Positions 1-62,460 of a stretch of 64,000 nucleotides of DNA are shown here, piece after piece. The first letter of the stretch is position 1. Every line of letters starts with the position of its first letter. Below the pieces are notes generated by a model. The model worked only from the letters and a program-made list of their open reading frames with translations. It was not told the origin of the DNA and did not search any database. The stretch is from Psammoneis japonica (lineage: Eukaryota). The stretch is from contig QPGO01000012.1 in the NCBI GenBank assembly GCA_008632985.1, forward strand, positions 310,001 to 374,000, in the 5' to 3' direction. The position numbers and the translations under genes are program-made.

Positions 1-3000
1 TGACCAGCTGAGCTGCGTGGCTCATGACACCTTCTGGGTTGCAGGGTTCTTTCACCCATGTGCATCAGAGTTCTCATTTGACATCACAAACAGGAATTGC
101 TCCTGTCATCTGGGCTGCTTTCTGTCACTCCTGCACCCATCAGTTTCCAATGGTGTGATGGTCTTGCTGCCCTGAGATGTGTGGGATGTTTTTGTTGATT
201 GGATGGCCTTGATGTTCCATGAATGAATTTGTCCACAGAATCATGGTCATTGCACCATTGACTCCCACACGTTCATCCTCTGTGCTGCTTTGGGTGTTGA
301 GCTTCTGCTGCATTTTACATGGCCTGCACTGCTCCATTGCCCATGGCCACAACTCCTCCTGTGTGGCTCTTGAAATCCAGGTGCATTGCAAATGACACAT
401 GCGCATGCCACTTGATGACTCAGAGGTTCTTCATGCTCAATGCAGCAACTTTCAGATGCTTGAGACAATGGACTGGCTTTCCCCAGTCCTTGTTGGTCAT
501 CTCACTGACTTGTGTGCACAATGCTGTGATGGTTGGGTGCACATCCATGTGGCCTCTCTTGGGCATGAGTGGTCCCTTGGCTGCCCACACACAGAATGTT
601 TTCACTTTGTCTGTTGGCAATCTCATGCTGCTGGTGTCAAATGGGTTTGCCCTGCTGGCATCATGGATGCATCTGCACTCTTGATCTCATCTGGAAACTG
701 ACCGATCATCTTGTGAATGCAGTTGGTCATGTGAACCTTTGCCTTGCACTTGTGGCTGAAGTCCAGGGTTATGTTAAGGCAATCATGCTTCTTCCCTTGT
801 GCTGCAATGACTTTCCCATGACTTTCACAAATCTTGTTTAGCCAGCTAAAAAATTTGTCATTTGCTTTGGGTTCTTGCAATCAACAACAGGTCATCCACA
901 TGGAAACGCACAGTGTGCCACTTGCCGTTGACCACTCAACTGACAATGAATGGATTGCTTGGGTTGAACTTAAACCCTGTCTTCTTCAAGTCCTTGCAAG
1001 ATTGCTTGCACCAAAGCAGAGCCACAAGCAACATGCTGCAAATGGCTCCAATGACTTGGACACAGTGATTCTCTTCCTCTTTTCCATGACCACATGTGTG
1101 GCCCATGTTGGTTGCAATCAATGATCCAGTCTTTGCCTTCCTTGGACTCTGGAATCAATGTCTGTGTAAATGCATTTGGTGCATTGGCACTCATTGTGCC
1201 ATGCCCTTTCACAGTGTCAACAATGGCTGTCATGAGGAGCATCCCTTCCAGCGATGCTGTTGGGCTGGCTCTGACTCATCCTTGTCCAGCCAATCTCTGG
1301 TTGGTTTCCCATTGCAACCATGTGCCCTTTCATGTGACCATCTTGCTTCTCCATCAGTGACATCAAGGCAATCACAGCCTTTGTCCTTTCAGTTGGAGCA
1401 ACATCTTTGACTGACATTGGTGCAAAGCACACCCTGTCATGGAGTTGTCTGGGGCCACAATCTCCTTCTCTGAGGCATCGTGCCCCCTCTGGCCAAACAC
1501 TTTGTGGCCTTCATGCATGGCAAATGCTGCTGGGCAAAGGAAGTGCCCTTTCCTGATTGGAGTTGGTTGTCAATCTCACACATAAATTGTGCCAGTGCCA
1601 TTTCTGCATTGCACTCAATGTCATCCCCTGGATTGGGACTCATGTTTGTTCATGTGTGACAGCAGCATTTGAGCCTGTTTTGTTCGTGTTCTGCTTCTGC
1701 GGTGTCTGCCACTCCTGCAAATTGAACTTTCTTCTCTCTGTGTTGCCTGATTTGATGTTGAAGGAAGCACCAATTGAGTGTTGTGCGCTCCTGGTCACTC
1801 TGCCAGGCATGACTTTTCTGCCTCTTCCTCCAATCATCTTTCTCCTTCCCATCTCTTGTCTTTTTGGGCAGGATTCATCATCTTTTTCTGACTCTTCATC
1901 TGACTCATCATCTTCACCATGTTGCTTGTGGTCTTTTTGTTCTTTGACTGCTTGGCTCTCATGCTGTTGATCGGGGCTGTGATCTGTCATCAGCCAGGAT
2001 CTTGTTTGCTTCTTCACACTCATCATCCAAGTCAGGTTTGTCTTTGTGGTTTTCATCTTCTGACTTGGTCATGCAGTTGGCATCATTGCACTTGTTTTCA
2101 TTTTCTTCTTTGTTGCTTTTGTCTTTGCTGTTGTGCAGGTTCACAGTGCAGTGGCCACCCTTGGGAATGGCTCATCTTGAAACATGGTCACAGATGTGTG
2201 CTGTCAATGCCGCACATCCATGGTGCTTGTCAGGTTGTTTTCAATGTGAGAAACAGGACAAATTCACCAAAAGCAAATTCAAAATGCTTGTCATGGTCAA
2301 GCTTTCTTCATTGCATGACAGTGTGTGAACTGTGCATGTCAGAAATTTCTTCCTTCTGAGGGTGCATGTTTGCCATGACAGTGTTCTTGATCATGGCGTG
2401 CTTGCAAATCAACCCAAGTGTCATCTTGCATGGCAGGTGGTGCACAGTGGCTCAAGTTTGCTCCTTGATGGTCTCAGTGCTCCTTGCAACTTCAGGAACA
2501 CAGTCATTGGTGTTTGCAGACATTGGGGTCACATTCAATGAAGAAGTCAATCTTGAGCAAAGCTGTGTTGTGCTGTTGCAGCATCATGTCCAGTGTGTTG
2601 TGTGCATTGACATTCTTCTTGGACCTCAGTCTCACACTTGATTGGCACTCAATCATCTTGTCAATTGCATGCAGCATCTTAAGTCCACATGCTTCCACAA
2701 TGCAAATGCAGAAGATCATGCCTTCTCTCTGTTTCTTGCGCATCTCAGGTGGGATGGTCACAATGTCATTCCTCTCATTGGAGCAACACACATGTTTGGT
2801 CTTCCCTTTTAATGCATCTGTTGGTGGACCCCAAATGGCCACCATCCTCTCCACATCTTCAGGCATGATGGACAAGACCTTTGCCTGATTTGATCATGGA
2901 AAGAGCTTGAAATCCCTCACACTGGAAATTCCAGCTTTGCAGCACACTCTGAGTGCTTGCTCAGCATTTGCTGCCTCCCTCTTGGTGCAGCCTGGGGAGC

Positions 3001-4760
3001 TCTGCTCCACCATTGGAGCTGCTGCAGTTCCAGATGTGCTCTTGTGTTTTTTGTTGCTCTTCTTCTTCTTCTTCTTCTTCTTCTTCTTCATCATCATCAT
3101 CATCTTCTTCTTCTTCTTTGACAGCATGCTGACATGTGACTTGCTTTCTTGGAGATCTTTTGCATGGTCAAAGAACTTCTGGCTTGATGCAAAGGCATGC
3201 AGCCCACAATGTTGTTCACTCTGAACACTGCAACTTGTCTTCTAGTTCTCTTGTCTGGCAGCTGGGGCTCATCCACCATTCGCTTGTCACATGTGACACA
3301 GCACTTGCTCTTTGCATCCACCAAGCTGAGGACGTTGGCCATCACATTCCATGAACTGAGCTTCACATCCCCCCATCCAGGCATGACACAGTTTTTGTCT
3401 GAAAAATCCACTCCTGCATTCATGGACAGACCAATCTTGATTTTTGCTGGCTGCACATTGTGCACCAATCTCCAGGTTGCTGTCATGCTGAGGGTGGAAC
3501 CATTGTCAAGGGTGCCAACATCTTTGTTTGCTTGGCCCATGCTTGTGTCTGATCTCTCATTGTCAGCTGCAATGATGCAGTGCTCCTGCTTTGACTGGAG
3601 TGGGTTGATTGGTCAGATCTGGTGATGTCAACACTGACATTGTTGCCATCCACCAAGGAGGCATCTTCATCTCATGTTTGTGCAAGATTTCATCCCCTTG
3701 TGTCCAGCTTCTTTTTCTAATTCTTGAGTCTCATTGTTGTTGTTGTTGTTTTTGTTGTTCATGCACTCACTGTTCCTCTTGTTGCACCTTTTGTGAGAGG
3801 ATTGTTGTCTTTGGAGTGGCCCAGTGGTGCATCCATTGCCTGACCCAGGGTCTTTGGACAGTTGTTTTTGCCAAGGCTGCAGTTCCTCACAAACTCTTCT
3901 TTGCACTCTTGCAATGGCAATTGCTGCTGTTCTCTGTGAACAGGAATGTTGTCCATGTCTTCAATGTCATCTCTTTTGGCATTCTCTGGGCTGGCAAAGC
4001 ACCGTCCTTGGTGCTCCTTGGCATTGGAAACAAGTCCATCTGGCATTCCATCTCCAAGACCTTTGCTTGCAACATGTGGCTGATTCTTGAATCTTGACTG
4101 GCAGTCATTCAGTGACTCATTCTCTTGTTGTTTCATGTCCAGTGTGTTCTGCAGGGACTTGGTGAGTGCACAGAATGGGTTTCAACCTTCAACAGCTTGG
4201 TTGGGTCATCCCCTGCTTGGGTGACTGGGATCACCTTGCACTCTCTGCTTCATCAGCTTGTGGTGTGTCAGTCATCTGCCTCACTTTGTCATTGCACTCA
4301 TGTGGCTCCACTCAGCACTGGCATTCCAGCTTTTTGTCTTCTTGCCATTTCTTTTCCAGCTTGGTTGGGTGATCCGCAGCTGTCTCAGCTGCTGGTCTGT
4401 CATTGTGGACATGTCTGAGGTTGGTTTCTCAGAAACACAGTCCTTGCATTTCAGTGTTTGAAAGATCTCACCAAATGCATGCCTTGTGTGTGCACTCCTT
4501 CTGCATGTGACAGATGATCTTCTCCTTGATGTCTTCACACATTGCATTGTGAGTGTTGCCATTCAGTGATGAAGGACAGAACTTCATCTCAGGCTGAAAC
4601 ACTTCTTGGCATTGGTCTTCTTCTTCTGGTTCTCAGAAGACCTGCGACTCTTGTCACCTCTTCTGCAACCATGTCCTTGGCCTTGGTTGTCAGATCCACC
4701 ACTTCCTCTGCCACTCATTGTGCAGGCACTCAGCACTCAACCAACTGCGGGTGAAGCAGT
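1..4760 (-). mobile_element. Highly degenerate Ty1/Copia (CoDi-like) LTR retrotransposon relic (gag-protease-integrase-RT-RNase H fragments)
   Basis: Minus-strand fragments in Copia order: gag-like (3600-4560), protease-like LDNGSTLS (~3500), integrase-region EDVERMVAIWGP..ALKGKT (2504-2875), RT-like fragments (~620-1430, e.g. LKKTGFKFNP) and RNase H ILWTNSFMEHQGHPINKNI (140-406). Many frameshifts; LTRs not identified. Confidence 0.8.
3058..3119. repeat. Compound trinucleotide microsatellite (TTC)n(ATC)n(TTC)n
   Basis: Directly visible; reads poly-K/M on the minus strand inside the Copia relic. Confidence 0.9.
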
Positions 4761-5479
4761 GTTGCAAAGCACCAAACATGGTGCCAGTGGCGGCTCTTTG
4801 GAGTGAACATTGAACCAGCAAGTCAAGGTCACCAAAAGGGAATCCTGTTGGGCTTCCTGTGCTGCTTGCTTCTTGTTGCTCTTGCCTTGGCCACATGCAG
4901 TGGCCATGGGTTGCCCAGAAGTTGTGGATGCAAACTTGTGATGCAACAGACACCCAGTGGCTCCAATCAAGAAAATTGCACCACAAACCAGTGATTTGCT
5001 TCACAAAGAATGAGATCAGCTGAAAGGTGAGAAAGATCAATGATGATGAAATCCTGATCACAAAGAGTCACTGAATCTGTCATGTCAGGAGCCATGGCAT
5101 TTTTTCTTCAATGCATCTTAATCTGGGTCTCTCACATTTCCCATCTTCTGAATGTTCCAACAAGGGGAGGATGTGCCCCAGCTGTGCACAAACCAAAGTG
5201 TGCACAAAAACAGCATTTGTGCAATTTTTGCACAGTCGCTGACTTTGGCCAAGCTTTTGCCACCAAAAGCACAGATTTGTCCAAATGTTTGTGTTTTGCA
5301 ACACTGACAAGACTGTCACATTGGTGTTGCAACATCATCATTTTTGTGCTGTCAATGTTTTTCATTCTTGCAACAAACCATCTGCAACACAGAAGAAATC
5401 ATGTTGAAGCTTTGCAAGCACCAAATGTTTGCACATCAACATGGAACACTCATTTGTGATTCTTTCCAGCAGGCATTCT

Positions 5480-6549
5480 GTCAGTGAAGGCTTCATTGCA
5501 CCCAATGCAATGTCGTGCAATCAGCACTGGCTCTGCTGGGGAATTTGTGATGAGGATTTGAGTGCCACCAAAAAATGTCATTTGACTGTCCATGCTCTGG
5601 ACACCTGTGAAAGCCCATCTGCACAAGCATTTTCCATTGGCACTCTTCATGCACAAGCAACACATGTCATTTGTGTTCAAATGGAGTGTCATTTTGTGCA
5701 TCACCTGGGGCTGCAGCACATCAGAGAGGCCACAAGAACATGTCAATGATGAAGAAGTGTGCTCCTCTTGTTGCACTTTTTAGAGCCCTTTGCTCCCAAA
5801 TCACCCACACATTTCCTGGGGATCACCCAACAGTGTGAGGGGATTGCCCAACTGCCAGACCCATGTGGGAGCTCTCTTCAAAAGAGCACCAGCTCATTTT
5901 TTTTTCCAGGGCATCAGAGCATGGTGTGGTGTCACCTGTTTGTTCCCATGCTTCCCCTTGTGTTTTCTGGAGGTTTTTGTCACAGAGTGCAGGTGGCACG
6001 AGCCACAAGCCAAAGAGCTCCCCACAGACTGGCTGCAGTGGACAACATGTGTGCTGGCAAGAAAGAGTGAGAAGAAGATCTCAGAGAGATCGTCATGTCA
6101 TTTGCCTGCACATTTGGTGCCAGGTTTCAAGAAAGAATTCCAACAGCATGTTTAATTGTCAGATTTTTGGCAGCCTTGCACCATGATTCTGTCGAGTTTG
6201 GAGGTGCATCGACTGTTTTGAACCGTCTTTGCCTGCCGACGACACTTTATTGACGCATCCTCCGACTCGCACATTTAATCATATGCAGACAGGTGGCCAC
6301 ATGGCCACTGCGCTGAATGCGGGCCGAACTCATCTAGTTAGGTTGAGCGCATTTTGCAGATAAATTGTGACAGCATCATACTTTCTTCTACTGCCTTTAC
6401 TTCTATTCCCCTCTACCCCAGAGCTGCTTCTAGCATTGGAACCGAGGATGTCCAACAAAGAACCCCTGGCATACGATCATATCTCAACAAGCTGCCCTAA
6501 CAGAGGTGGTCACGAGGAAAGTTTGGCGGAAGCTACAGGGGCATTAGGT
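5480..6549. repeat. Partial spacer/3' flank of the kinase tandem unit (copy 1)
   Basis: Homologous to ~26790-27975 and ~52790-53998 (e.g. caatcagcactggctctgctggggaatttgtga...; catgtttaattgtcagatttttggc). Confidence 0.9.
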
Positions 6550-9060: not shown

Positions 9061-9223
9061 GGTTTAATAGCCCTGCTCCCTACTTGGAGAGTGGAGAGCT
9101 GTCGAAATTGAAAATGGAATCAGCATGCGCGTGGAGCGCGCGCGTGGAGCCACTCTTTCGACTTCCGAGTTTTTCGCGAGACCTGGAAGTTTTCGTTTTT
9201 CAGGCACGTCGTGTCGTTCGGTC

Positions 9224-9449: not shown

Positions 9450-9634
9450 GTCCCCTCGAAATGTACCTGACTCGTAAGGCGCAATTCGATCCTATGTTGT
9501 GTCAGTGGTCCAACCCAAACAATCTTGACTTGTCGATCGATGTAAAAACCCTTGCTGGGGAAAAGCCGCCAATTCCTGAGCATGGTGCAAACCCTCGCTG
9601 GGGAAGAAACTCACCACCGCTCCACACATCCATC

Positions 9635-12600
9635 TCAATGCGTGAACTTGTCTAACAGAAAATTCCGTCTGACAGACGACACAACCTTTGTGAACAGATC
9701 GCCCAGGTTTGTCTCTGTTCCCTCCTTTGCAATCCTGACAGTCCCCGCAGCAACGGCTTCGCGGTTGCGGTGATGTGCAATGGAGTGATGCTTCTTCTTG
9801 AGTGTAGACTCAGGAACAGAGCAATTCTTGTAGATGGCCTCATTGTCACAGAAGACATTTGTTGGCCCTTTGATCGGCACCCCAAACATTCGAAGCTTGC
9901 ACCGCAAACCCTCCACGAGCTCGATGGCATTCTTGAGTGCGACGATCTCAGCCCCAAATGTGCCAGCCTCCACGGCATTCTGACGCTTCGAGTGCCACAC
10001 GATGGGTGCCCGATTGATGAACATCAAGATGCCTGTGTGGCTGCGATGATCGGCAACATTTCCGGCATGGTCAGCATCCACAGAACAATGTGTCGACACC
10101 ACATTGCCTCGAGCTGGCGGTGCATTTGTCGGAATGGCTTCTCTTGCATCTCGGCAGAAGTCGTGCCAGTCGCATTTCACGAATCGCGATTCATCGATCT
10201 TGGGATGAGCCGGATCAAATGCCGCTTGGCGCTTTGGAACCTGTTTGAGGTGTGCAAAGACATGCAACACCTGTTCCAGATGACCAATGTGAGGAAGAGC
10301 GAGGTGAGCACACATTGACGAAACCTCCAAATGGATGTCTACTCTGCCGAGTTCCACAGCCCAAACCAGCACACCAATCAGCTCTTGACAGCAGTGAAGT
10401 CCTTCAGCATCCAACTCACCAGCAGTGTCTGGCTCGGGTTTGCATCCACTGCTCAGTGGGGTTGTCGCCTTGCTTTCCCCTCCTTGCCAAGCCTGTCCTC
10501 TACATTTTGGACAGCGGCCTTGCAGCACTTCTCCGCAGACATTGCCCAACAGGTGGTCCCATCGGCTAAAGTCATCTTGGAAAGCGCAGCACCGAGATGA
10601 GAATCCAGCTCGGCTGCCTTGTCACCCTTGAGCTTGAACTTGGACCTGATGCCATCCATCGTCTTCATGGGTTCGTGACCAATCGACAGCACATCGTCCA
10701 CATAAACTAGAGCACATTCGCAGCACTCAAATCCGTCGGGTTTCACCGCAGGTCACATCCATGCATCCGGATCAGCCTTGCTGCCCTGCAAAAGAACTCT
10801 GGAAAACCAAATTTACGTAGAAGCAGTGCCAGGGACCCTGTGCAATTGCCAAAAAAGTCCGGAATGTCCAGAAACTGCGCAGAATCCAGTGTAGAATCAG
10901 TGCCAGGGATGTCAAAAAATCACGAAATTCTGGACTTGTTTGGTGTTTCTACAGGGGACCTGGTGCTGCTTCTACGTAAATTTGTCATTCCGAGGGGGGC
11001 AGCTTGCTCGGTTTGTGCCCTGGATCATAAAGCGTCTCCGCTGGAAATGCCCTGAACGCTGCTCCGGAGCTCTTCAATCCACACAGGGCTCTGACCACAA
11101 TCATGATGCAACCTTCATCCTTGCCAAACTCGGAACCTGCTCTGGTCCAAATCTTCTCCCTGCAAGGGGCAGCAAGGTGGGCGTTCTGGGTGTCACATGC
11201 AAAGACTTGCAAGTCATTGAGTGCAGCAAGCGTCAGTGCAATCCTCACCAAATCCCAAGAGACGACAGAGGAGCAAGTGACATGTGTGGGGGGTTCAGTG
11301 GTGTGGCCTCCAGCCACCATGCGAGCTTTACGGCGGAAGTTTTTTCTCCCAATTTGATGTCAAAAATCATGTGACACTTCACTTCCTGGAAACCAGGTGC
11401 CATGTCCTCAAGCTCCCCTTCATGCTTGTCAAAAGCAACCCACACATTCTTCATCTCCATGCAAATGGCATCCCACCATAGGGTGTTGCCATTTGCGCGA
11501 TCGATCTGGATCGCCTCCTCGACACTCTTTGGGATCCGCATGCCAAATTTGTGTGTCCGAAGCCAACACTTTGACTTGACCTTCGCAATGGAACGCTCAC
11601 GGGTTTTCATGACATGAGGGACCCACCAAGCAAACGCTGCCTCATTTGAGATCTTGCGCTGAATGGCAAACTCGGCAACTTGGACTGGGAAGCTCTCCTT
11701 TGCAATCTTCAAGTCGATCCAAGTCGTGCTTCCATCCTTCCATTGGAACAGGAGTTCCCATCCTTTGGCAGTCTTGCGCCTCTTCCGAACGCCTTGCTCG
11801 GTCTCAAAGAATTCGGATTCAGGAACGTCCCCGTTGGCACGGCAATCAACGATCTCATCAAACAAGACATGCCGGTTCCCGTCCTCGTCAATCTGAGCAA
11901 ACACATTCATGACGATGGAGTTAGCAGAGAGCGCAGCATGGTGCCCATCAGGGTGCTCTACCTCATACATCCTTGTGTCAAGGATGGGATTGTCATTGGC
12001 TGTTCCTGTTGGAATGCCATTGGCATCTCTCAACCTCTTCGTGACACAAGCAAACTCAGGACCATTGTCATCTCTTGGAAGCGCAACTTCCATGTTAAGG
12101 CATCCCCAGTCCACCGCTTCCGGTGAGGCTTCCTCGTCTTTCTTGTCGTCATCATCATTTGTCACCTCCTCTGAGGACATGACGCGATCACACTCATCGA
12201 GGAATTCATCGTCGCATCCAAGGCAGTCTTTCCAGTCTTCGGGACCAATCTTGCAATCCTCGTCATCGGGGAAGTCTTGCTCCTTCAACCGGCGCTTGAT
12301 CTCCTCGTCAAAACTGTCAAACTTTGCCTTTTTCTCTTGAGCAGCGGCTTCTAAATTGGTGACTCGTTGAACAGAAGTTCTCGAAATAACACTGCCTGTC
12401 TGTGTCAGAACGCAGTGCGACATGAGACTCCCTGTTCTGTGAGACACACCAAGCCACCTACCGAGCTTCTCGTCCCCTGGACCGGCATTCTCCCTGCACC
12501 AAACCCAATCATAAAATCCAAAGTCAAGGCACTCCGAGATGTCCACGGTCTCTCCGAGAATGTTCTCTAGTGGCACTCCAGCATCCAAATGATGTGCTCC

Positions 12601-14114
12601 AAGGAATGTGCAAGACATGGTCTCACATGTCCATGTAAATCCGCAGTCCCACAGTCGCCGCGGCACTTGCTTCTTGACCATGATGTGGAGCCACTTGCGT
12701 CCAACCTCGCGCACAACTCCTTCCGCAGGATTCTGGTTGTGTCGATCGGGTTCAATGACATGACAATCTGTGCTTTCCTTGCGCACGGTCTTCATGAACT
12801 CCGTGCCAGGTTTCGTTTGCTCCTTAGATCCATCCATCAGGAGTTTCTCTGGCACGCCAAATTCCTGGCAAAACATCTTAAGAGCCTCGCCAGCCTTGCT
12901 CTTCTTGTCCATGGGATAAATCGCAGCGAAGTGTTGCTTGTTTGTAAAGATCTGGGCATGTCGAATGCCCTCCAGCGAAACCACCTTGCCATCAACCGTG
13001 TCGGTTGCCCATTCACCCCGTAACCCAGGCTTCGTGAACATCCGATCGGCCCGATGGCGTCAACCCATTGGCATCAACGCTGACCTGATGAGCTTTTGCG
13101 TGGTCTTCTTGAGCGTGCTTGCTGCTTGCTTGAGTCCCATGCACCATCGTTCACTTGAGTCAGCAGCCGATGCATCACTGTGTCTCTCCTTGGACATGAA
13201 TGTCTTTGGGAGTGCTGAGTCTTCAGGTCCTTCTCCGATTGTTTCCGTGGCGGAGACCTGGACTGTTGACTCCGATTCCACATTGACGGCAGCTGTGAGC
13301 CTTGATTGGACTTGATTGACCCCACAAATGAATTGCTCATCGCAACAGTCCCGGATTGAGGGTTGCTGTGGGCAGGATCAGCTTTGAACTCATGTGTCAG
13401 ATTGGCGTGGATCGTCGCAATCGACCGAACTGGCTCCATTTCCTCCTCCGCAGATCGTCGAGTTCCAATGGATTTGGACTTGACGGTCTGTGGATCCCAA
13501 GGTTGTTGGGAGGTCATCTGGATCTTGGGGCACTCGTGCAATTCCTGCTCTGCAGGAGTGCGAGCAGCCGCAACAATGTTGGTCCCCATGGCTTCAAGTG
13601 GCATCATGAAAGATCCATCCTCCGCAAGGATGTGCAGTGGCGAATCGGAGCAGGGATTGTCCTGAACCTCAACACCAAAGTGCCGCAGCTGGTTTGGGTT
13701 AACCAGCAAGTGCTCCATGGAATCCGGCATCCACAAGCCCTCGTGGAAGACCAGAATGAATGTTGCTCTCGATGTCGGTGACGTCCACGCCGTGGCTGCC
13801 GAGACAATTGGGACACTCTCAATGGAATCGCATCCCTCGTTAAAAGGCGACACGTCACATTCTCGTCCAGAACAACCCAAGAGGGTAAAGTTTTGACCAA
13901 AAACAGTGGTGTCAGCATGCGAATCCAATTCAAGGCGTCCATGCTGTGCCTTGCTCATGTCACGGATGTGAGTGATTTGTGTGGTGTCAGACCGCGTTGC
14001 CGAGACACGCCGTGTCAAGGCAATGACCTCACAAATGCGTTTGTCACAGCCACGTGGATGCTGTTCCTTTGATCGATGCAGCTGTCCCCCACTCCATTGT
14101 GGCAACCACAACAA
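9635..14114 (-). pseudogene. pol: Copia pol (protease-integrase-RT-RNase H), frameshifted and MITE-interrupted
   Basis: LELDSHADT (protease), WATDT..MDGSKEQ..QNPAEGVVRE (integrase DDE), CHMIFDIK, ALCGLKSSGA, LVYVDDVL (RT), VDADHAGN..RSHTGI..FCDNEA..DLFTK (RNase H). Confidence 0.9.
10781..11002. mobile_element. 222-bp MITE inserted in Copia RT
   Basis: Termini CTGCCC...GGGCAG; duplicated CTTG on both sides (removal restores KPSKAD); subterminal inverted repeat caaatttacgtagaagcag / ctgcttctacgtaaatttg. Confidence 0.8.
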
Positions 14115-14146
14115 GAAGTTTGTGATGCAACAGAGCAGGGTCCAGC

Positions 14147-15580
14147 TCAGCAGTCATTTGTTCTTTCCTCTGCGCTTTTCACTGCGACCACCGAATGCGT
14201 CTCCGGCATTGTCTCCGTCTTCACCGCCAGCCCTTGATTCATCATCGCCAGAATGGCGCTGGCATTAGTGTTCAGGGCAGAGATTTTGCAGTTCGCTTCT
14301 TTAAGCTGCGACGACAGCTTCCAATTCTTCTTCTTGAGCAACTTAACGGATGCAGCACGGCGTTTGGTTGGTTTGGGTTGTTTGGCAATGCCCAGATGCA
14401 CGCGCTCGTCGACAACCTTCTGTTTGTCCTCCTCACTCAACTGGTGCCAAGTTTTGTGGCATCCAGTGTTGATGGATCCATCCTCATTGTAAATGGTGCC
14501 ACCCTCTTTTCCTCCTCCAGAGGCGACTGCGGCAATCGCACGACGATGCGCAATCGTCTCTGGAAGGGTGGCGACTTTTGCAGCAAGATGATTGGCCGCC
14601 GTGGTGAACGTGATGCCTCCTTCAAACTCATTCTGTGCCTTCAAGGTCTCAACTGCGGCTTGCAGTGATTGGTGCTGTGTCTTCTCAAAAAGAATCCGCA
14701 ATTTCTGGGCCTCCATTTTCGGTTCGTCGTTCTCCTCAAAAATGTCAAACATTTCTTGAAGCTTGTTGACAAACGACTCAAACGGCATGGCGCGTTCACT
14801 CTTGCAATGGAGGGTGTTCTCCATGCGCTCGGCTTCAGAGATGTGGTGGGAGGCATTCCCTTCTCCCTGGCAATGGTCACACAACGCTCTGAAGTCAACT
14901 CGTCCGTTCTGCTCATTCTTGTGGTCTTTCAACCATTGCTCACTGGGTGTGCCCGTGGTGAGGGACTCGATGAGCAAATGAACCGTACGAGTGTCAGCCT
15001 CGAAAGCTGGGCCTTGGAGGGGTGCACATGCAATGCACTTCTGGACAAAAGTGTTGTGGCCTTGAGGTTCAGGTGCATCGTTTTGACGTGTGCAACACAC
15101 TGACGGCACGCCAGAGACTCCTGGCACAATGCCGAGCATGTTCGTCAAGCCAGTGCTCCACTTGGCCCAATCCTTTTCACTCTCCAACATCCCGGGTGAT
15201 GCCTCTTTACTGAGAGAGTCAGCAGTGGTCTTGGTCTGGGAACGGATCTCAGCACGACTGAGTGCCGTCTGGAGAGCAGTGCGGAAAGTTGCCTGGTCAA
15301 GCCCATCCAGAGCAGGGTTCTCGCTCACACGACCAAAGTCCTGCACCCAATGGATGAGAGCTTTGAGCCGACGACTGCGGGCCAAACCAAAATGAATGCG
15401 CCCTTCAGCAACCGTCCTCCCAGTGTGCGATGACGCAAGAGAATCGATGTCTTCTTCCTTGAGGTCTTCCAAATCGTCAAAAGACGCAAAGTCCGCCACA
15501 AGCGAGACTCGTTGAGCTGGATCAACAAATCCGATCCATTTGAGTGCTGTCTCGACAGGATCCGGAGGAGCAGCCACCAT
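14147..15580 (-). pseudogene. gag: Copia gag-like ORF (477 aa)
   Basis: Lies 5' of pol inside the LTRs; NGRVDFRALCDHCQGEG resembles Copia gag with Y->C/H changes; only one Tyr in 477 aa. Confidence 0.8.
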
Positions 15581-15870
15581 GGCAGTGCCTGCACCAGTGG
15601 GAAAACAGAGCTGTGTGAGAAATCACAAATTGAAAAGGATGTCTCGGTCTGTGTTGACGACAACACACAGCCATTGGAAGCATGGAGACTGGCCGTGTCT
15701 CCTCACTGCTTGTGCACTCGCTGATGCCAGGCGACGACAATCATCACACACCCTTTGATCGACCGGCACTCGTCGTCACAACCCTGCCATCTTGGTGCGA
15801 TCGTCTCTTCACAGTTGTTCAATGCTTTCCATCAAACTAAACCTGAGTTGACGACTTGGCTCTGACAAAG

Positions 15871-23874: not shown

Positions 23875-24298
23875 GGTTTAATAGCCCTACTCCCTACTGC
23901 GAGAGCTTGAAGCTGTCGAAATTGAAAATGGAATCAGCAAGCGCGTTGAGCGAGCGTGGAGCCACTCTTTCGAGTTTTTCGCGGGACCTGGAAGTTTTCG
24001 TTTTTCAGGCACATCGTGTCGTTCGGTCACGTACCGCATTACCGGTGCTTCGAAGTAAATACCTCGAAGTACCGGTACAACGAACCGATAAAGCAAGGAG
24101 GTAAGCGAGTGCGTAAACAAGCGAAGGATGATTACGGCGGCGGGTGCGGGAAACTCCATCCCGATGCGATGGGTTGTCTTGAAGCAAGCCAACAAGGATT
24201 CGAACGAAAAAATGGCAGTAAAGAAAGAAGCAGGGCTGGCGCATGTCACCTGGAATTCGTAAAAGGAACATTTTTCCAACGGTCGCAAATTTATCTCA
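23875..24298 (-). promoter_or_regulatory. Putative promoter/5' region of kinase copy 2 (near-identical to 49490-49915)
   Basis: Immediately upstream of the ATG; conserved between copies; retains TpA and CpG unlike adjacent spacer. Confidence 0.5.
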
Positions 24299-27200: not shown

Positions 27201-27975
27201 AGCACACAAGCTCATTTTTTCTTCAAGGCATCAGAGCACAGTGTGGTGTCACCTGTTTGTTCCCACTCCTCCCCTTGTGTTTTCTGGAGGTTTTTGTCAC
27301 AGAGCACAGGTGGCATGAACCACAAGGCAAGCCAAAGAGCTCCCCACAGACTGGCTGCAGTGGAAAACATGTGTGCTTGCAAGAAAGAGTGAGAAGAAGA
27401 TCTCAGAGAGATCATTGTGTCACCTGCCTGCACACAAGCCAACTGTGGCAGATTGCATCCTTGCTGTGCAGGGATGGCAAAGCAACACCATTGCTTTGCA
27501 GTGCTTGCTCATTTGAGTTTGTTTTCTGCCTGTTCCATTGAAGCAAAGCAGCACCAGGTTTCAAGAAAGAAGTTTAACAACATGTTTAATTGTCAGATTT
27601 TTGGCAGTCTTGCACCATGATTCTGTCGAGTTTGGCGGTGCGTCGACTGTTTTGAACCGTCTTTGCCTGCCGAAGACACTTTATTGACGCATCCTCCGAC
27701 TCGCACATTTAATCACGTGCAGACAGGTGGCCACATGGCCACTGCGCTGGACTCATCTATTTAGGTTGAGCGCATTTTGCAGATAAATTGTGACAGCATC
27801 ATCATACTTTCTTCTACTGCCTTTACTTTTATTCCCCTCTACTCCAGAGCTGCTTCTAGCATCGGAACGGAGGATGCCCAACAAAGACCCCCTGGCAAAC
27901 GATCATGTCTCGACAAGCGGCCCTAACAGAGGTGGTCACGAGGCAAGTTTGGCGGAAGCTACAGGAGCATTAGGT
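24299..27975. repeat. TpA-depleted spacer of the tandem unit between copies 2 and 3
   Basis: Nearly identical to 50300-53998; lacks ~0.39 kb present at 49915-50300. Confidence 0.92.
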
Positions 27976-29521
27976 TCATGCACCGTTGATACATGCTGCG
28001 ATAGTGGACTTAATTTTCGAGTGACGAACAGTCAAAAGGTCAATGCCGAGGAGCACCAAGCTCGCGCTCCCACTGTCTTTGTGCTCTTTGCATAGTTCCG
28101 AGAGCTTAACAATGGTTGTCTGTCGGCGATAATCAAAAGCCTTGTCGCCTTTTCCAAGTCCCGCCTTGAACTCAGGCCATGGCACTGGGTTTTGTTCACG
28201 CAACGCACACACCGTAAAAAGCAAGGATGCAATGTCATGCGTGGCTGAGGGCTTCCAGGACTGTGTGTTAGCCTTACCGTTGACCCGCTCGACGAACGTT
28301 CTTGACCTCTTTGATCAACGAAATTTCCTGATTCAGCAGCACAGGTGTGAACGGATTGAGGTGGTTGGACTCAAAGTCGACAAATCGTTTCGGACCCAAC
28401 TGAGATGGAGGCATGTAGCGCTCGCGTCGTAGGTCGGATCGGCCATGCAAAGAGCCACCGCTGTCTCGAATCTGAGATAAGGCACGGAAAAGTGCACCAA
28501 GGATCGGCTGGACAGCATCTTTCTCTGTCGCAACGGCAGTCGGGAAATATTTTTTAGAAAAAAAGTGCTCGGGCTTTTGGTCTGCCCACTCAAGGATCGC
28601 CTTTACAGTGTTGTTGACAAGTGCAGGCCTTTTTTTGAACGCCTTGGCGTCGACCTTCGTTGACTTTTCGACCAGACGGCACCAAGCCTTGGAAAAGAGT
28701 TCAAGTTCATCGGTTTGTTGGGGTGCTTTTGATGGCCACCATGGTTGAATTTGTTCGGACGACCCGAGAAAGTTATGCAGGTTTTCTTGTGACTTTGATG
28801 GACTCGGTATGTGCAGGCCTCGCATCATTTCGCGATAGTCGCTGTCGGATATCTCGTTTTCATCATCTATTGTACGCGTCCCCGTTTCAGTTTTGTTCGA
28901 AAAAGCAGCATATGCTTTCAAATCATCGCGAATTTCTTTGATTTTGTTGCATATTTCGTCGATCGGCATTCGGCACGTTTTGGAATACAAACGATAAACA
29001 GCCAGAGCCCAGTAAGACGGGGACTCCTTCATTATCTGATGGTTTTCGTTGACCCAGTTCTGCAAAGGAGACACGTCAAGGCCGAGATAAGTCGGTGATG
29101 AAGGTCCAAGTGGGCCTCTACGCAGCGTTTGAAGAAGCTCCTCGGCACTTTCCGGAGTTGGCGCTTCTTCGGATGCCACCTGGTCGATTGCCGCAAGAGT
29201 TTCACGAGCAGTCTCCTGTCTATTTTTCCAAACCGCCAGCGTTCCGACCATTTTACGCTCCTCCAATTCATTGAGAAACATAATGCTGCTGCTCACCCCC
29301 GATGTAACCACGCCCGCTTCGTCGGCTTTGCGCTTCCTCGCCGTCGCATTAGCAGCAACATGACCGTTACTCGGACGATGATTGGTTGAATTCGCAGCTG
29401 CGTCGTCGCCGTTGCCCGCCGCTACGCTGCCACTGGACGGTTCTATTTGCGCCGCCGCTGAGGCGGCCGTTGGCGCTGCTTCCTGGGGAAATGAAGAATC
29501 CACAGGCTGGATCATGGCCAT
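27976..29521 (-). pseudogene. REase+kinase gene copy 3, ~0.97-kb internal deletion
   Basis: Junction ccttaccgt|tgacccgctc at ~28280 joins sequences ~970 bp apart in copy 5 (54303/55272), removing the kinase N-lobe and catalytic loop; leaves a 415-aa ORF. Confidence 0.9.
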
Positions 29522-30883
29522 GGTTTAATGGCCCTGCAGTAGGGCTACCGAAATGGAAGAATCATCGGCAATGGAGTAGACTCCTAGTAGAGGGCCCTAC
29601 CGTATAAAACGTGTAGGATTTATCTACTGGAATTTCTGTAGGATTTGACACACTGTAAGGATTCGACAATGTGCGCCGCAAATTCCAATCTGGCATAGTC
29701 CTAGACTGCCGCGCCAAGAACCACTAAGAAGAAACTTGGCATTAGCATGCTTAGGAGTCTCATAGAGTAGAGCTTTCGGTAATACTCTGCTCCGTACAAG
29801 GGGGGTTGGGTAAACCCATACCCTCCGCAGGGTCTCGAGTCTGAACTCGAGGGCTCGCGAATGGGGCCTGCTGGGATCTGCTCAGGGCGCTCCCGGCTGA
29901 ACCTAGACCAAGGCACCTTCGGCATTTCGCAACGTCGGTGCCTTGCACAAGGTGAGTTTCAAACCGGGACCGCAGGCAATGCCAGACGCTATTTTCTTGC
30001 ATTCGTAGTCGCGCATCATCATGAGCAGGTCGTGGCAGGCACCCTTCTAGACTTCACCGGCAGACTCCCGTGGTCGAACCAGTGAAGTTGAGCACAAATC
30101 CAGGGAGTGGTGGGTGGGTTGCAAAAAGAAGCTTTTCCACTGCTTTGACATGATCCAGTCACGTTGATCAGGGTTCCTGTCTCAACAAAGAATGGAAAAG
30201 TGACAAGAAGAAAACCGATGAGTTTGACTGGCCACAATGACCAGGCATCTTGGTCCAGGAGCACCCGCTCCTGGAGAGGGCACAAGTCTAAGGTCTTGTC
30301 AGTTGGGGAGTCTTGCATCGCACGGTGCGTCTCCATCTAAACTTGGGCACGAGGAGGATTCGACATTGTGCGCCGCCAATTCCAATCTGGCACAGTCCCA
30401 GACTGCCACGCCAAGAGCCACTGAGAAGAAACTTGGTGTTAGCGTGCTCAGGAGTCTCACAGAGCAGAGCTTTCGGCAATGCTCTGCTCCGCACAAGGGG
30501 GGTTGGGTAAACCCATGCCCTCCGCAGGGTCTCGAGTCTGAACTCGAGGGCTCGCAAATGGGGCCTGCTGGGATCTGCTCAGGGCGCTCCCGGCTGAACC
30601 CAGACCAAGGTGCCTTCGGCATTTCGCAACGTCGGTGCCTTGCACAAGGTGAGTTTCAAACCGGGACCGCAGGCAACGCCAGACGCTGTTTTCTTGCATT
30701 CGCAGTCGCGCGTCATCATGAGCAGGTCGTGGCAGGTGCCCTTCTAGACTTTGCCGGCAGACTCCCGTGGTCGAACCAGTGAAGTTGAGCACAAATCCCC
30801 CCCGATGAGAACTCCCCGGCAGTGGCCACCTGAAGAAAAGGTCTTGAAACTTGAGCAGTCGGAATCGAGTTGATGGTGTTGAC

Positions 30884-45590: not shown

Positions 45591-46586
45591 GAGGTGCTTT
45601 AGCAAAAGTCACTCAGCCTGAAACAAAGTGTGACGAGCTCTTGTCAGGGAAGAAAGGATCAGCTTTGCATGGCTGAAAGCTCATGGCCAACACCAAGCTG
45701 CAGAAACTCTCTGCTGCAACTCACAAAGCTCTTTGCATGAGCACCACAAAGTCGTGACATGCGCCTTGTCAGAACAGGGTCAACTGCAACACTGCAATGT
45801 CGGCTGGGCTGCTGACTCCTCTTCTCATGATGCAAGGTTCTCCTTTCAAATGACCCTCAAGCATCAGTGCTGGGAGGATGTTTCCAGTGTGCAGGTGCTT
45901 TGGACGTGCCAAGTTTTCTTGAGAGCCAACTGCATGGTTGAGATTGAGGAATCAATGATGGATTTCCATCATTTGCCTGCGCACAAGCCAACTGCGGTGG
46001 ATCACATGCATGCTGTGCAGGGATGGCAAAGCAACACCATTGCTTTGCAGTGCTTGCTCATTTGAGTTTGTTTTCTGCCTGTTCCATTGAAGCAAAGCAG
46101 TGCCAGGTTTCAAGAAAGAAGTTTGACAACATGTTTAATTGTCAGATTTTTGGCAGTCTTGCACCATGATTCTGTCGAGTTTGGCGGTGCGTCGACTGTT
46201 TTGAACCGTCTTTGCCTGCCGAAGACACTTTGTTGATGCATCCTCCGACTCGCACATTTAATCACGTGCAGACAGGTGGCCACATGGCCGCTGTGCTGGA
46301 CTCATCTGTTTAGGTTGAGCGCATTTTGCAGATGAATTGTGACAGCATCATCACACTTTCTTCTGCTGCCTTTGCTTTCATTCCCCTCTGCTCCAGAGCT
46401 GCTTCTAGCATCGGAACGGAGGACGCCCAACAAAGACCCCCTGGCAAACGATCATGTCTCGACAAGCGGCCCTGACAGAGGTGGTCACGAGGCAAGTTTG
46501 GCGGAAGCCACAGGAGCACCAGGTTCATGCACCGTTGATGCATGCTGCGACAGTGGACTTAATTTTCGAGTGACGAACAGTCAAAA

Positions 46587-57114: not shown

Positions 57115-58352
57115 TGCAATGTGCAGCTGCCAATGAGAGTCAATGCATCACGGCGACGTGTTGCAGCCTTTAAATGTCACAAAGGGCGTGTCAAAAACAA
57201 CCTTTTGTCTGCATGCACACTGCATTGTGAATTCACAGTGGAGTGGTTCAATGCGTGACCATTGGGCAGGAGGCCAGGGGTTCGAAACCCTGAGTGGGAG
57301 TTGTCTGCAGCAACGTTGATCACTGTCGAACGCGCAAAACTCTGTGCAGTTCTGCACATTCCTTCGTACGCACCCACACTGTTCCGCCAAAACCGTGCAG
57401 TGTCAGGCTCGGTCTGCAGGTGAACCGTGCTGGATCGGATCGCCGGATCGGATCGCGCCAGAATTCCGTCAGTCGACAGGTGGAACCGGATCGGATCGCA
57501 GATCGGATTCGACATTTTGATGAGTCGCAAAACGACGTAAGTTTCAAGATTCCAAATTCTCAAGAACAACAAAGCACTGAAATGGCGAACAACAGAGAGA
57601 GTGTGGCCATGATGCTTCACATCTTGTCATGACGAGACAACATGATGACAGAACCATGCTGTCATTGCTGCTTCACATGCTTGCTTGACCGCATCATTGA
57701 GCATCATTGTCGCTCAGTGTTTGCAGCACGCCAAGGAAGAAAAAGCCACCTCTTTTGCAGCTCAGAAACTGACGCTGTGTTTTCGTGTTGAGGTTTTGAA
57801 TTGCATGACAAACACTTGTCATTTTGCTCATTCAATGTTTCTCCAACAAATCTTTGCGGCATTGTCGGTTTGACAAGCTGTTCCATTGCCATGCGACCTT
57901 TTTCATCTCCATTTCAAGCATGGGAAGAGCAAGGCTGCAATGCCAAGGAAGTTCTGTGCCCTCATGGCTGAATGTCATGCCGCCCTGTGTCACAATCGTG
58001 TGATGTTTCGCCACTGTCGTGATGACGGCACGGAATCTTCCAAATTCGATCCGACATCCGATCCGAGATGGCGGATCAGTCCCGCGAAGGCCACGGATTG
58101 ACTTTTTGACTCGATGGACCAATGTTTTAATGGGTCATGAAGGAGTCGATCCGGCGATCCGATCCGGCTCGGTTCACCTGTAGACCGAGCCTCAGCACAC
58201 GTCAGCAAAGAGCCGTGTGGATGCGTGACACATGGGGAGGAGTGCAACACACAGCTGCTGACAAGAGTCAGTGCATCACGGCGACGTGTTGCAGCCTTTA
58301 AATGTCACAAAGGGCGTGACAAAAACAACCTTTTGTCTGCATGCATGCTGCA
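57115..58352 (+). mobile_element. TRIM copy 1, interrupted by a MITE
   Basis: ~105-110-bp TG..CA terminal direct repeats; PPT GGGGAGGAG before the 3' repeat; TSD GCTT (57111-57114, 58353-58356). Confidence 0.85.
57406..58191. mobile_element. PIF/Harbinger-type MITE (786 bp) nested in TRIM copy 1
   Basis: 22-bp TIR ggctcggtct(g/a)caggtgaaccg; 3-bp TSD TCA; subterminal (CGGAT)n/(ATCCG)n repeats. Confidence 0.88.
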
Positions 58353-59374
58353 GCTTGCTGTTTTTCACCGCGGTGAAGTGTGGTGAAATTCAGGAAAAAC
58401 GGTGCAAAACATGAGCCATTCGGCCGCATTCAAGCTAAAAAGAGCAGCAACCAACCAGCCTTGATGACTTTTCTCGCATTTCCCTTGCAGAAATTTGCCC
58501 ACAATTGTTGCGAACTTGCTGACGTGTTCATGCTCTGGGTGGGACCTCGCACTGCTGGGCTGTGGCACAGTTGTTTTTTGTCATCTGTCGTGTGTTTTGC
58601 ACACACATTTCTGCATGTTCCATTGTAAAAAATTGTTCCACACTGCCTGTTTTGCAAAGCCAAAGGCTTTCTGTTTTCTGCATTTGTGACAATGAAAACA
58701 CGCTGGGCATGTTCTTCAATGTCTGAAGAACACACCCGGGCACGCTGTCAACAATGTGCTTCAAGTGTGGAGGAGGAGACACGTTCGCAAAATTGCCTCT
58801 TTTTCTGTTGGTGATCATTCATGTTTTCATTGCTCGACAATTTTGCTGCCGGAGCTCGCACACGGAATTCTGCGGGCCCAATGTCACAAAAAGTCCAGCC
58901 TGGGGCTGGAGCCCATCTGCTGACAGGCTCCAGTCCCAGGTGGGACTTTTTGTGACATTTGCCCCGCAAAATTCTACGTGCGAGCTCTGCAGTTCGTACT
59001 CTGGTTAATGGACACATTTGTCTTCGACATGAAATGAACGGCCAAGTTTGCAGCACATGTGTCTCTGTTCGTACTCGAAGTTTTGGACAATGCGCCTGCC
59101 CTGTGCCATTCTCAAGACACTCGAGAATGGCACAGAAGAAAAAAATGTCAAAACTTGTTGAATGGATCGCCTGACAATTGCACCATAAAATGATGCAAAA
59201 TTTCGCCAAAATCACGTAGAAGTGTGCGTGCGCGACATGCGACGCGATTCAAAAAACTGTCGATGTCACAGTTCAGCAGTGCGAGGTCCCACCTAGACCT
59301 GGAACGCGTCTGCTTGCCAGTCGATTCAAATTGACTGGTGGCAAGCTCGCAATCTGCAGAACCTGTGTGCAAAT

Positions 59375-60349
59375 TTGTGGTGTGTTCACTCTGGCTGTGC
59401 ACCTCCTGAAGCTGAAACTGGGTGCATCACGAAATGTGCTAGAAAACAATCAACACAAAAAATTGATCGCACCATGTCGTCTTCAAGCGACTTCACTGAC
59501 AACACAAATGGCACCAACCAAGTGCCACCAACACAAGACAGCAATGATGATGGCATGCCTCATGACAAGGACTTGGGGCTTGTGTCAACCCCTCACCTCT
59601 TTGGTCAAAAGCTGTTCTTCTCCCTGCATGTTTGTGACAGCAAAGAACTGTCTGCAGAAGAAAAGACGCTTGCGGATGCCAGTGTCTTGTCAATGAAAGT
59701 GGCCGGTCTCAGATCTCTTTGCCACAAGTGCAAGCATGTTCATGATGACAATCCTGCGCCAAAAAACATTTACACCACAGGCAATTCAGGCCACTTGAGG
59801 AAGCATCCGATGATGTGGTTCTGCATCTTCCGGCAGGAAGAAGCACATGTCGAAAAGCGCCCCTTCAGCACTTCCAAGAACTGGAGCCAGGCAGAAGATT
59901 CTCGCATCATTGAGATTTTAAGTGACCCGACCTTCCAGAAACCCCTCCAGCACCTTCGCCAAAAGGCTCCACATGTTGTGCTTGACGAAGGCAACCCGCC
60001 CCTTGTGGCTGTGTGCCGACATTTCATTGCTGTTTTGCACAACAATTTTGACAAGTGCAAACCAACCCATCGGTTTCCAGATGACCCACTTCTCAAGGCC
60101 TTCAATCCCAATGACAAGACCATTTCTTCCCATGCTCCAGATGTCTTGAAGTTGAGGGTTGGACAGCTTTGCAGCAGGTTGACAGCAGTGCACAAGGTTG
60201 GCATGAAGAGCGGCTTGGATCCGGAAGGTTTTGAGAGTGCTCTTGATCTGACCAACCCACTGGACCAATCCATTCTCTGTTGGTGGAAGGCAATTGACCT
60301 GAGTGATGATTCATCTGTTCTCAACAAGTTTGTGCATCTCCTTCATTAA
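59375..60349 (+). pseudogene. Hypermutated ORF of unknown function (324 aa), possibly part of the adjacent Helitron-like element
   Basis: Protein-like composition from MSSSSDF onward, but nearly Tyr-free; no recognisable motif. Confidence 0.4.
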
Positions 60350-61343
60350 ATTTGTCAGTGAATGCACACATTTGACAGTTTTTTCTCAAATTGGTTCCTC
60401 CTTTGTGGCAGGAACTCTGGACACAAATTGAGGAGGTGTGAAACCCAGGCTGGTTTGGATTGCCATGCGCACGAGCATCAGAATTTAGAGCTCTGATCTT
60501 TGCTTGCCACCAATCATTTTTTAAAAAAGTTGCATGGTTAAATGAGGGGTTGCACCCAATTAACATCTGATGAGATGCCACATTAAATTTCTAAGATCAC
60601 ACAAAAAAATGGGGGTCAAACATTGTTTTTCATGTGTGGATGTGTTGCAACAAAAGACGTGGGCTTTCCAATTTGTGTTTCTGTTTGGTGGTCTTCAGTG
60701 CCTGGACACATTGCAAAAGAGTCGTGCTTTCCAATTTGTGTGTGGCTCTGTTTGGTTGTTCGATTTTGCCAAGCGATGATGAGAGAACGGTTCTTTGCCA
60801 TTTGTTTCCATGCAGTTTTGTGTGTTTCTTCCATTGAAATGAGGTGTTGACACTGTGTCTTAGATTGCTCTTAATTGTTTGTCATCCGGGCACAGATGCA
60901 GATGGCCACAAACTCCTCATTTAAATGCTTGGAATTTTTCCCAAAAATTAGAACAAATTCCCAGATGCAGTGATGTGAGAATGTCATGTGTCAACTGGAC
61001 TGCAAAATGTCATCGCACTTTTCGTTGGTGAAGTGCATGACACTCCTTCCTTTCTTCAACTGGATCAGGGCATTGTGCCCATCTGGCAGGCCACACAGAC
61101 TTAAATCTTTCTTCAGCGGTTGCCGAAGATGCGGGCCATTTCTGGTCTTGACTCTGGAGAGCATGACATGCACCCAGTTTTGGGTGCAGCTCCAGCTGGG
61201 TGCAAACACACATTGTCAACACCGCTTTCTTGCAACTTGTGTCCCGCAGTTGCACTGCTTGTTGTGAATGACAGCTGGCTCACTTTTAGTCTGAGCGCGT
61301 GCTTCTCTTTTTCCTCATCCGTCAGCTGTTGGGTTGGGTCTTC

Positions 61344-61788
61344 TGCAACACACAGCCACTGATGAGAGTCAATGCATCACGGCGACGTGTTGCAGTTTAA
61401 ATGTCACAAAGGGAGTGACAAAAACAACCTTTTGTCTGCATGCACACTGCGCTGTGAATTCACAGCAGAGTGGTTCAATGCGCAACCATCAGGCAGGAGG
61501 CCAGGGGTTTGAAACCCTGAGTGGGAGTTGTCTGCAGCAACGTTGATCACTGTCGAACGCGTGGAACTCTGTGCAGTTCTGCATGTTCCTTCGCACGCAC
61601 CCACACTGTTCCGCCAAAACCATGCAGTGTCAGCACACGTTAGCAAAGAGCCGCATGGACGCGTGACACATGGGGAGGAGTGCAACACACAGCTGCCAAT
61701 GAGAGCCAATGCATCACGGCGACGTGTTGCAGTTTAAATGTCACAAAGGGAGTGACAAAAATGACCTTTTGTCTGCGTGCACACTGCA
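61344..61788 (+). mobile_element. TRIM copy 2 (445 bp)
   Basis: Terminal direct repeats tgcaacacac...acactgca; PPT; TSD CTTC. Confidence 0.9.
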
Positions 61789-62012
61789 CTTCTAAACAGG
61801 CTCCAAAAGTGCAAGATTCAGGCTTGAGTGAAAAGGTGGACAGACCAGTGGTTTTGTTGCTGTGCTTGAGTTCTGCATGATCCACCTGGGATGCTGTGAC
61901 ACCTTGAATGAATGTCCCACAATCTGGGACAACTTTTGATGAAGTTTTTCCTGGTTTGAGCATGACTTTCACTGTGGTTGCTTGTGTCCCATTCGCAGCG
62001 CCATTTGCCATG

Positions 62013-62460
62013 TGCAACACACAGCTGCCAATGAGAGTCAATGCATCACGGCGACGTGTTGCAGCCTTTAAATGTCACAACGGGCATGACAAAAACAACC
62101 TTTTGTCTGCATGCATGCTGCACCATGAATTCACAGCGGAGTGGTTCATCGCAACCATTTGGGCAGGAGGCCAGGGGTTCGAAACCCTGAGTGGGAGTTG
62201 TCTGCAGCAACGTTGATCACTGTCGAACGCGCAAAACTCTGTGCAGTTCTGTGTGTTCCTTCGCACGCACCCACACTGTTCCACCAAAACCGTGCAGTGT
62301 CAGCGCACGTCAGCAAAGAGCCGCATGGACGCGTGACACATGGGGAGGAGTGCAACACACAGCTGCCAATGAGAGTCAATGCATCACGGCGACGTGTTGC
62401 AGCCTTTAAATGTCACAATGGGCGTGACAAAAATGACCTTTTGTCTGCATGCATGCTGCA
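62013..62460 (+). mobile_element. TRIM copy 3 (448 bp)
   Basis: Terminal direct repeats; PPT; TSD CATG; removal rejoins the helicase frame (..HNENM|ANG..). Confidence 0.9.

Follow-up and report, generated by a model that had tools for sequence, protein, structure and literature searches.

Surviving YTAR sites record flank-dependent loss of TpA from transposon-rich DNA of the diatom Psammoneis japonica

Why do the few TpA steps (TA below) left in an old repeat block of the diatom Psammoneis japonica stand mostly between a 5' pyrimidine and a 3' purine (YTAR; Y, pyrimidine; R, purine)? The question is raised by a 64,000-nucleotide stretch of contig QPGO01000012.1 (bases 310001–374000; genome size 91 Mb), called here the window, which opens on a block of decayed repeats poor in both TA and CG. 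This block spans ~8.7 kb, from ~2.4 kb upstream of the window to about position 6240; TAs are dense again from 6248 and upstream of -2444. Within 1–6150 the observed/expected ratio (O/E) is 0.03 for TA, 0.08 for CG and 1.90 for TG/CA. Positions 1–1500 have 66 matches in the genome, and TA O/E lies at 0.00–0.08 in all nine relatives retrieved.

Fourteen TAs are left in 1–6150, ten of them YTAR (TTAA 5, CTAA 2, TTAG 2, CTAG 1) and none RTAY. Y..R flanks are found at just 22.7% of the TA, TG and CA steps there, and the probability of at least 10 YTAR among 14 is 1.5e-4. An earlier note on this DNA had listed eleven surviving positions as YTAR, found TAC, TAT and their complements nearly gone, and proposed a preferred target such as TAY. 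All eleven are YTAR TAs, one of them (6153) falling 3 bases beyond the range, and the observation is confirmed for 1–6150. The pattern is not an assembly artefact, because five long contigs of public run X1, possibly from the same sample as the window, reproduce most of the region (460–2447 and 3160–5284) with zero base differences and two single gaps.

The same bias is found along the contig and in the rest of the genome. TA O/E has a bimodal distribution, with sharp edges, across 264 kb of the contig. In the 108 kb with TA O/E below 0.1, 62% of TAs are YTAR and 3% RTAY, as against 17% and 30% in 79 kb of gene-like DNA (TA O/E at least 0.45). On other contigs, 166 TA-poor kb hold 559 TAs, 307 YTAR and 25 RTAY. 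Of the hexamers with 40 or more sites TTTAAA survives best (27/160), and its retention in all six terminal repeats of the terminal-repeat retrotransposons in miniature (TRIMs) at 57–62.5 kb, also claimed earlier, holds (6/6). In kb bins TA loss rises with CG loss (rho 0.82), and no periodicity among surviving TAs is evident in 20-bp bins up to 400 bp.

Repeat pairs with one TA-rich and one TA-poor copy give the direction of change. In several of the 82 pairs listed, changes from TA to TG/CA outnumber the reverse by 14:0, 13:0 and 13:0. In six fresh-versus-eroded pairs, selected for contrast, YTAR was retained at 11 of 23 sites and all other TA contexts at 1 of 72; YTAR sites do mutate, as the earlier note had suspected, but more slowly (12/23 lost against 71/72). 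CA rarely mutates to TA, and does so at much the same frequency whatever the 5' base (1/2040, 3/2932, 3/2670 and 2/2429). Since retention in the pairs is skewed and new TAs arise rarely and with no flank bias, the YTAR excess is due to slower loss, not to gain.

Flank-dependent rates were estimated by a competing-risk fit to 214 TA-origin sites in two transposon families, a miniature inverted-repeat transposable element (MITE; 30 copies, the query plus 29 of 40 scored matches) and a Copia element (the 15 of 30 loci with identity of 85% or more); a DIRS-like family was omitted as too diverged. Each TA offers two competing adenines, and the TG:CA ratio therefore resolves the strand even near saturation. 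Grouped by the 3' neighbour of A (A:G:C:T), A>G rates stand at 1:1.5:2.9:3.3 (inclusion of the -2 base in the fit raises T to 3.7); the MITE copies partly share ancestry, and sites converted identically in every copy are missed. Site-bootstrap 5–95% ranges relative to 3' A are 2.3–3.8 for C, 1.1–1.9 for G and 2.8–4.9 for T, and the families agree when fitted separately (MITE 1:1.4:3.0:4.7; Copia 1:1.6:3.1:3.6). The log-likelihood gain is 252 for the +1 base and 14.5 for the -2 base alone; a 5' purine at -2, tried as the driver in place of the 3' base, has a minor effect and was rejected. The TAY preference is thus upheld by strand-resolved rates, in which most of the variation is accounted for by the 3' neighbour of the mutated A, and the order TAT ~ TAC > TAG > TAA, set by that base, is hardly in doubt. 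YTAR survives longest because purines stand 3' of both adenines. A wider fit adds weaker effects (A at -2/-3 speeds loss, T at -3/-4 and A at +2 slow it), because of which TTTAAA lasts best. Adenines off target share the 3'-pyrimidine bias (RAY 100/668 sites, RAR 43/726), and AA is no hotter than GA (AAY 52/285, GAY 48/383; AAR 21/355, GAR 22/371).

With a single scale parameter the rate model predicts how survivors in the 108 old kb divide among ten classes with a deviance of 9.4, against 335 for a composition-only null, a small part of the test DNA overlapping the families used in the fit. This bears on an account in which loss is equal and the excess stems from base composition, from genes in the baseline avoiding stop codons, or from a bias in how TAs arise (e.g., YC>YT). 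Gene-like DNA is itself poor in YTAR, which inflates the contrast with genes; the polarised pairs, the flat CA>TA gains and the failure of the null nevertheless refute biased gain and composition, and the account is scarcely credible. Equal loss over NTAN contexts, the outcome that would have undone the earlier proposal, is excluded by the rate fit, the survivor prediction and the pair retention together.

The changes are essentially TpA>TpG/CpA (at TA-origin sites, 2794 states are TG/CA and 79 are neither these nor TA). A>G at TA is 60–80-fold faster per adenine than A>G elsewhere (339/31991 per copy), and TA decays ~5.6 times faster than CG (hazards 1.23 and 1.75 versus 0.22 and 0.31). Both strands are about equally mutated (ratio 1.14–1.15), with no strand overdispersion in the fitted copies; processive editing was rejected on this ground and on the absence of same-strand runs. 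A young relative of the MITE used in the fit, itself with terminal inverted repeats, carries transitions at 17 of 56 TA bases and 1 of 56 CG bases, and its 4-bp target-site duplications are identical in 23 of 26 cases, one pair reading TGCA/TACA. With TA hits, few CG hits and an altered duplication, the change must have occurred on DNA, after insertion and before CpG decay. The process acts at the DNA level, on both strands, by single hits, with transitions only and in one direction. The 390-bp young MITE (L023:9054-9443, L032-L060) has 1581 first-look candidates in the genome and is TA-rich even inside eroded blocks, and can therefore be used as a clock.

These properties bear on ADAR-type editing of retroelement RNA, fixed by reverse transcription. 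The genome has two A_deamin genes, and ADARs are reported to prefer a 5' U. Editing of this kind is refuted as the main source, and is thus exceedingly improbable, by the equality of the strands and by hits in a non-retro MITE, in a target-site duplication and in host-derived DNA; TAG, equivalent to the ADAR optimum UAG, is also slow here.

The process is a variant of a recently described TpA hypermutation. The chlorarachniophyte Bigelowiella natans is reported to undergo de novo TpA>TpG/CpA hypermutation in its integrated viral DNA, with a rate ~1000-fold up and active in only some lines; ADAT2 is proposed there as an untested idea (Mettrop et al., bioRxiv 10.64898/2026.01.13.699255). As in the diatom, the reported changes are transitions only, on both strands, local and in foreign or silent DNA, and TpA-poor, CpA/TpG-rich clusters of B. 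natans, enriched for transposon domains, resemble the diatom blocks. The diatom system differs in its host, in the large fraction of DNA in which transposons are affected (O/E is below 0.1 in 108 of 264 kb) and in erosion to TA O/E 0.03, against the reported 0.45; CpG decays alongside, and the flank rule has been measured. The main text of the preprint contains no flank analysis and no diatom, while its Fig. 2B or Table S2 may hold flanks. Literature searches for TpA hypermutation in a diatom found no report, and B. natans was the only precedent that they returned.

The target DNA is local, mobile and repeat blocks being eroded and genes spared with sharp edges. TA loss follows CG loss over Copia copies (rho 0.71), and TA retention in MITE copies tracks the TA content of their flanks (rho 0.44, p 0.02); judged by composition, the TA-poor blocks are probably marked by 5-methylcytosine (5mC) and silent. 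Targeting could alternatively proceed by repeat homology, through pairing like that in repeat-induced point mutation (RIP), with the same chemistry. Every affected sequence examined is a repeat, and five tandem kinase gene copies of ~3 kb, 95–98% identical (one partial, one frameshifted), vary by transitions at 30 of 89 TA sites as against 46 of 1956 other columns. These near-identical copies nevertheless keep TA O/E at 0.4–0.5, so that repetition alone is not the trigger; in near-identical pairs just one copy is eroded (14:0, 13:0), strand-polarised hits of the RIP kind are lacking, and the reported B. natans target, itself unrelated, is single-copy. Homology targeting is accordingly quite unlikely, and silent chromatin is the likelier guide.

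Fungal RIP is itself a dinucleotide-specific transition mutagenesis that kills transposon copies and is associated with cytosine methylation. It makes TpA through C>T, whereas the diatom process destroys TA and CA>TA is rare; it hits both linked copies, whereas the diatom process hits one of a pair, largely spares the kinase tandems and leaves no strand-polarised runs. The window also contains, at 29658-38777, a presumably DIRS/Ngaro-like element, judged by its motifs and with no Pfam match, whose split direct repeats have one TA-rich and one TA-poor partner.

A nuclear DNA-level mutator is proposed that would convert the A:T pair of TpA to G:C (read as TA>TG or as TA>CA, depending on the strand), acting after insertion in transposon-rich, CpG-decaying blocks. 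Each TA would present two targets, one per strand, at rates set mainly by the 3' base and weakly by outer neighbours, and YTAR TAs, TTTAAA best of all, would be the residue lasting longest. As to chemistry, we infer, and lean slightly towards, a polynucleotide adenine deaminase that would be recruited to silent chromatin and convert A to hypoxanthine, fixed as G at replication; that the enzyme is of TadA/ADAT2 type is doubtful. Adenine deamination is the simplest chemistry for clean A>G, and the absence of a transversion excess in Copia (11/372 TA columns versus 65/1951 others) favours it because a miscoding deaminated base would give clean transitions. The absence of AAG/MPG glycosylase (PF02245) matches from the genome points weakly the same way.

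Several observations weigh against deamination guided by silent chromatin. Same-strand runs are absent at 3–300 bp (|z| <=1.44 in 8 distance bins), and there is no stem effect of hairpins on 209 sites, themselves near saturation, whereas runs and hairpin preference are frequent with single-strand deaminases; predicted unpairing is linked to survival only slightly (rho 0.2), perhaps artefactually, as the folded copies have different bases at the site itself. MITE transversions are at 7/60 TA columns versus 9/161 others, in small numbers. TA and CG loss are uncorrelated over MITE copies (rho 0.18), and in the fitted copies TA loss is independent of distance to CG. Endonuclease V (PF04493) is present in the genome. 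The deaminase profiles PF00383 and PF14437 yield a bacterial-type TadA, an ordinary ADAT2 and metabolic deaminases; of the two A_deamin (ADAR/ADAT1-fold) genes, the one checked has homologs across diatoms, and no lineage-specific deaminase or other special enzyme stood out in the profile searches.

These searches scored first-look candidates, exon by exon, and returned nine matches to PF00383, five to PF14437, four to PF02137 (two genes), six to PF00817 (five genes), 27 to PF00145 and none to PF18785. The TadA gene has a hydrophobic leader and the RNA-type Asp108, and the ADAT2 gene carries the Asn reported for all eukaryotic ADAT2 (PMC10354150). One weak match to PF14441 (OTT_1508 deaminase; E 2e-5) is an 80-aa frame in fully eroded DNA (L198:1501-1629), either a dead gene or chance. 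A CDA-fold deaminase (L065, contig C79) shares one frame with a second domain, probably 2-oxoglutarate/Fe oxygenase-like. Contigs C41 and C317 each carry a two-domain dCMP deaminase gene (L061, L062; 99% identity), which is probably a duplicated haplotype in the assembly; allelic polymorphism was rejected as a gene control, the C41/C317 pair differing by 1 base. Near-identical C5 cytosine methyltransferase genes are found at L166 and L167 (C297) and L165 (C301), the first two in TA-poor DNA (O/E 0.10 and 0.09) and possibly mobile-element cargo.

The link to the TadA family suggested in the earlier note fits only in part. The target of TadA is UACG, with U before the edited A. Adenine base editors ABE8e and ABE8.20m are reported to convert A>G best after T, more before C and less before A, with a 5'-T effect of +25–52%, up to ~4–5-fold off-window, and AA coldest among off-targets (PMC8989541); a review tabulates 5'ACG under TadA/ADAT2 and 5'UAG under ADAR (PMC10661471). 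The diatom shares the directions (faster after 5' T and before 3' C, slower before 3' A). It departs from the editors in TAT being at least as fast as TAC and, as a further point against a deaminase, in a 60–80-fold demand for 5' T with AA similar to GA; the deaminase genes found are also ordinary. Amphioxus ADAT2, a natural DNA editor, is reported to prefer GAA and hairpin loops (PMC10354150), unlike the diatom process with no hairpin effect. Membership in the TadA/ADAT family is unproven.

The damaged base need not be A, since TAY reads RTA on the opposite strand, and on sequence grounds an A lesion at TAY and a T lesion at RTA fit equally. In the latter case T of 5'-RTA would be modified in silent DNA (e.g., by a formyluracil-type or enzymatic mark) and template G, giving T>C from a palindromic TpA mark parallel to 5mCpG. 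All counts are fitted as well as by adenine deamination, the process resembles a DNA-modifying enzyme in being almost confined to one dinucleotide and in lacking processivity, and thymine modification occurs in protists. To our knowledge, though, no T modification gives such clean T>C, and the genome has no Tet_JBP (PF12851) match, a weak point as control genomes gave none either; a thymine lesion is unlikely.

Error-prone repair synthesis would have Pol eta or Pol iota insert G opposite template T in methylated chromatin. TA loss does co-occur with CpG decay, and the genome has five Y-family polymerase genes, of which, to judge by motifs, one presumably resembles Pol iota most and two resemble Pol eta. 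Pol eta is reported to make A>G at WA (W, A or T; PMC2213188) and Pol iota to favour G opposite T (PMC3031609). The diatom process shares A>G after T with Pol eta, but the WA preference predicts hot AA, which is not elevated over GA here; same-strand patches, dependence on CG distance and a clear transversion excess are lacking, and Pol iota offers no reason for strict TA. We regard repair synthesis as rather improbable. The Pol iota-like gene (L200, C22) has best PDB matches at E 2e-26.

Named homologs of the Copia protein encoded at 9.6–15.6 kb, and likewise those of one deaminase, come from diatoms. Among 120 listed Copia homologs, five have at most 1.2% Tyr, with Cys or His in 62–94% of conserved Tyr columns, and a sixth has 29%; for one Tyr-poor homolog the best match in this genome is 58% (71 of 970 candidates scored). 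In all six, which are related and share columns, Tyr is kept at 12/17 YTAY-type versus 8/31 RTAY-type positions (p 0.005), and without the sixth at 6/11 versus 4/24 (p 0.04). The Cys:His ratio by preceding codon has the expected direction but is not significant (4:1 versus 12:11). Copia proteins eroded from Tyr to Cys/His are thus a hint, at the protein level, of the same process in other genomes. Two metagenome loci were found, of which L190 has no TA depletion and L189 is partly TA-poor, with 27 TAs (YTAR 8, YTAY 13, RTAR 3, RTAY 3). The first kb of this Copia locus (L189:1-1000) has just 9 TAs and normal CG, that is, TA loss without CpG loss in another sample. Eroded Copia copies (window 11245-15622; L191-L195) hold open frames of 1100–1500 aa with Tyr replaced by Cys/His; loss of TAA, TAG and Tyr codons yields such long false open frames in annotations.

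Features of the window are collected below. Gag-, protease-, integrase- and reverse transcriptase-like fragments, assigned by motif, suggest that 1..4800 is probably a decayed Copia-type long terminal repeat (LTR) retrotransposon; the label is tentative because tblastn of the block with the 120 homologs of the other Copia family gave no match.

Table 1. Coordinates in the window of features that bear on TA loss
Feature	Sites or segments	Span	Strand	Basis or remark
Decayed-repeat block, TA-poor and CG-poor		1..6240	.	Composition; relatives
Old Copia-type LTR retrotransposon, decayed (tentative)		1..4800	-	Stop-to-stop translations
Ten YTAR survivors	775, 839, 847, 971, 2680, 2810, 3243, 3718, 5119, 5781	774..5783	.	
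Four non-YTAR survivors	TTAC 316, TTAT 770, GTAA 1167, ATAA 1583	315..1585	.	
Kinase gene copy beside the block, TA-rich internal control		6550-9063	-	One of five tandem copies
Other kinase copies	21365-23877, 28274-29524, 46931-49492, 53999-56512		-	Interleaved with transposons
Younger diatom Copia element, Tyr codons to Cys/His, in rate fit		9600..15650	-	TA O/E 0.07-0.19, CG 0.6-0.8
TA-rich copy of a repeated stretch	Partner 45974-46586	27425..28037	.	Partner lost TAs (14 TA>TG/CA, 0 back)
444-bp direct repeat pair		29658..30798	.	First copy TA-rich, second TA-poor (13:0)
Six TRIM terminal repeats, one TA apiece, within TTTAAA	57169, 58297, 61396, 61733, 62067, 62405	57115..62460	.	
Older MITE copy, 390 bp, in rate fit		58922..59311	.	

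The quantitative, cross-validated flank rule provides a fingerprint for an enzyme hunt: a candidate must follow TAT ~ TAC > TAG > TAA, show ~1% activity at RAY and act without processivity or transversions. The rule can be compared with the 231 de novo mutations of B. natans, which raises the question of a system shared by a diatom and a chlorarachniophyte. Copia frames with Tyr turned to Cys/His are both a protein-level marker of the process and an annotation trap. It is possible, if short of probable, that a natural chromatin-guided DNA adenine editor or a new TpA-specific base-modifying enzyme is at work, a duplex TpA reader nearly as strict as methyltransferases are towards CpG, preferring (A)ATAYY, that would form a genome-wide transposon defence shared with distant protists, with the Tyr-eroded Copia proteins elsewhere due to the same system. 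A natural adenine editor of duplex DNA, if true, would matter for base editing.

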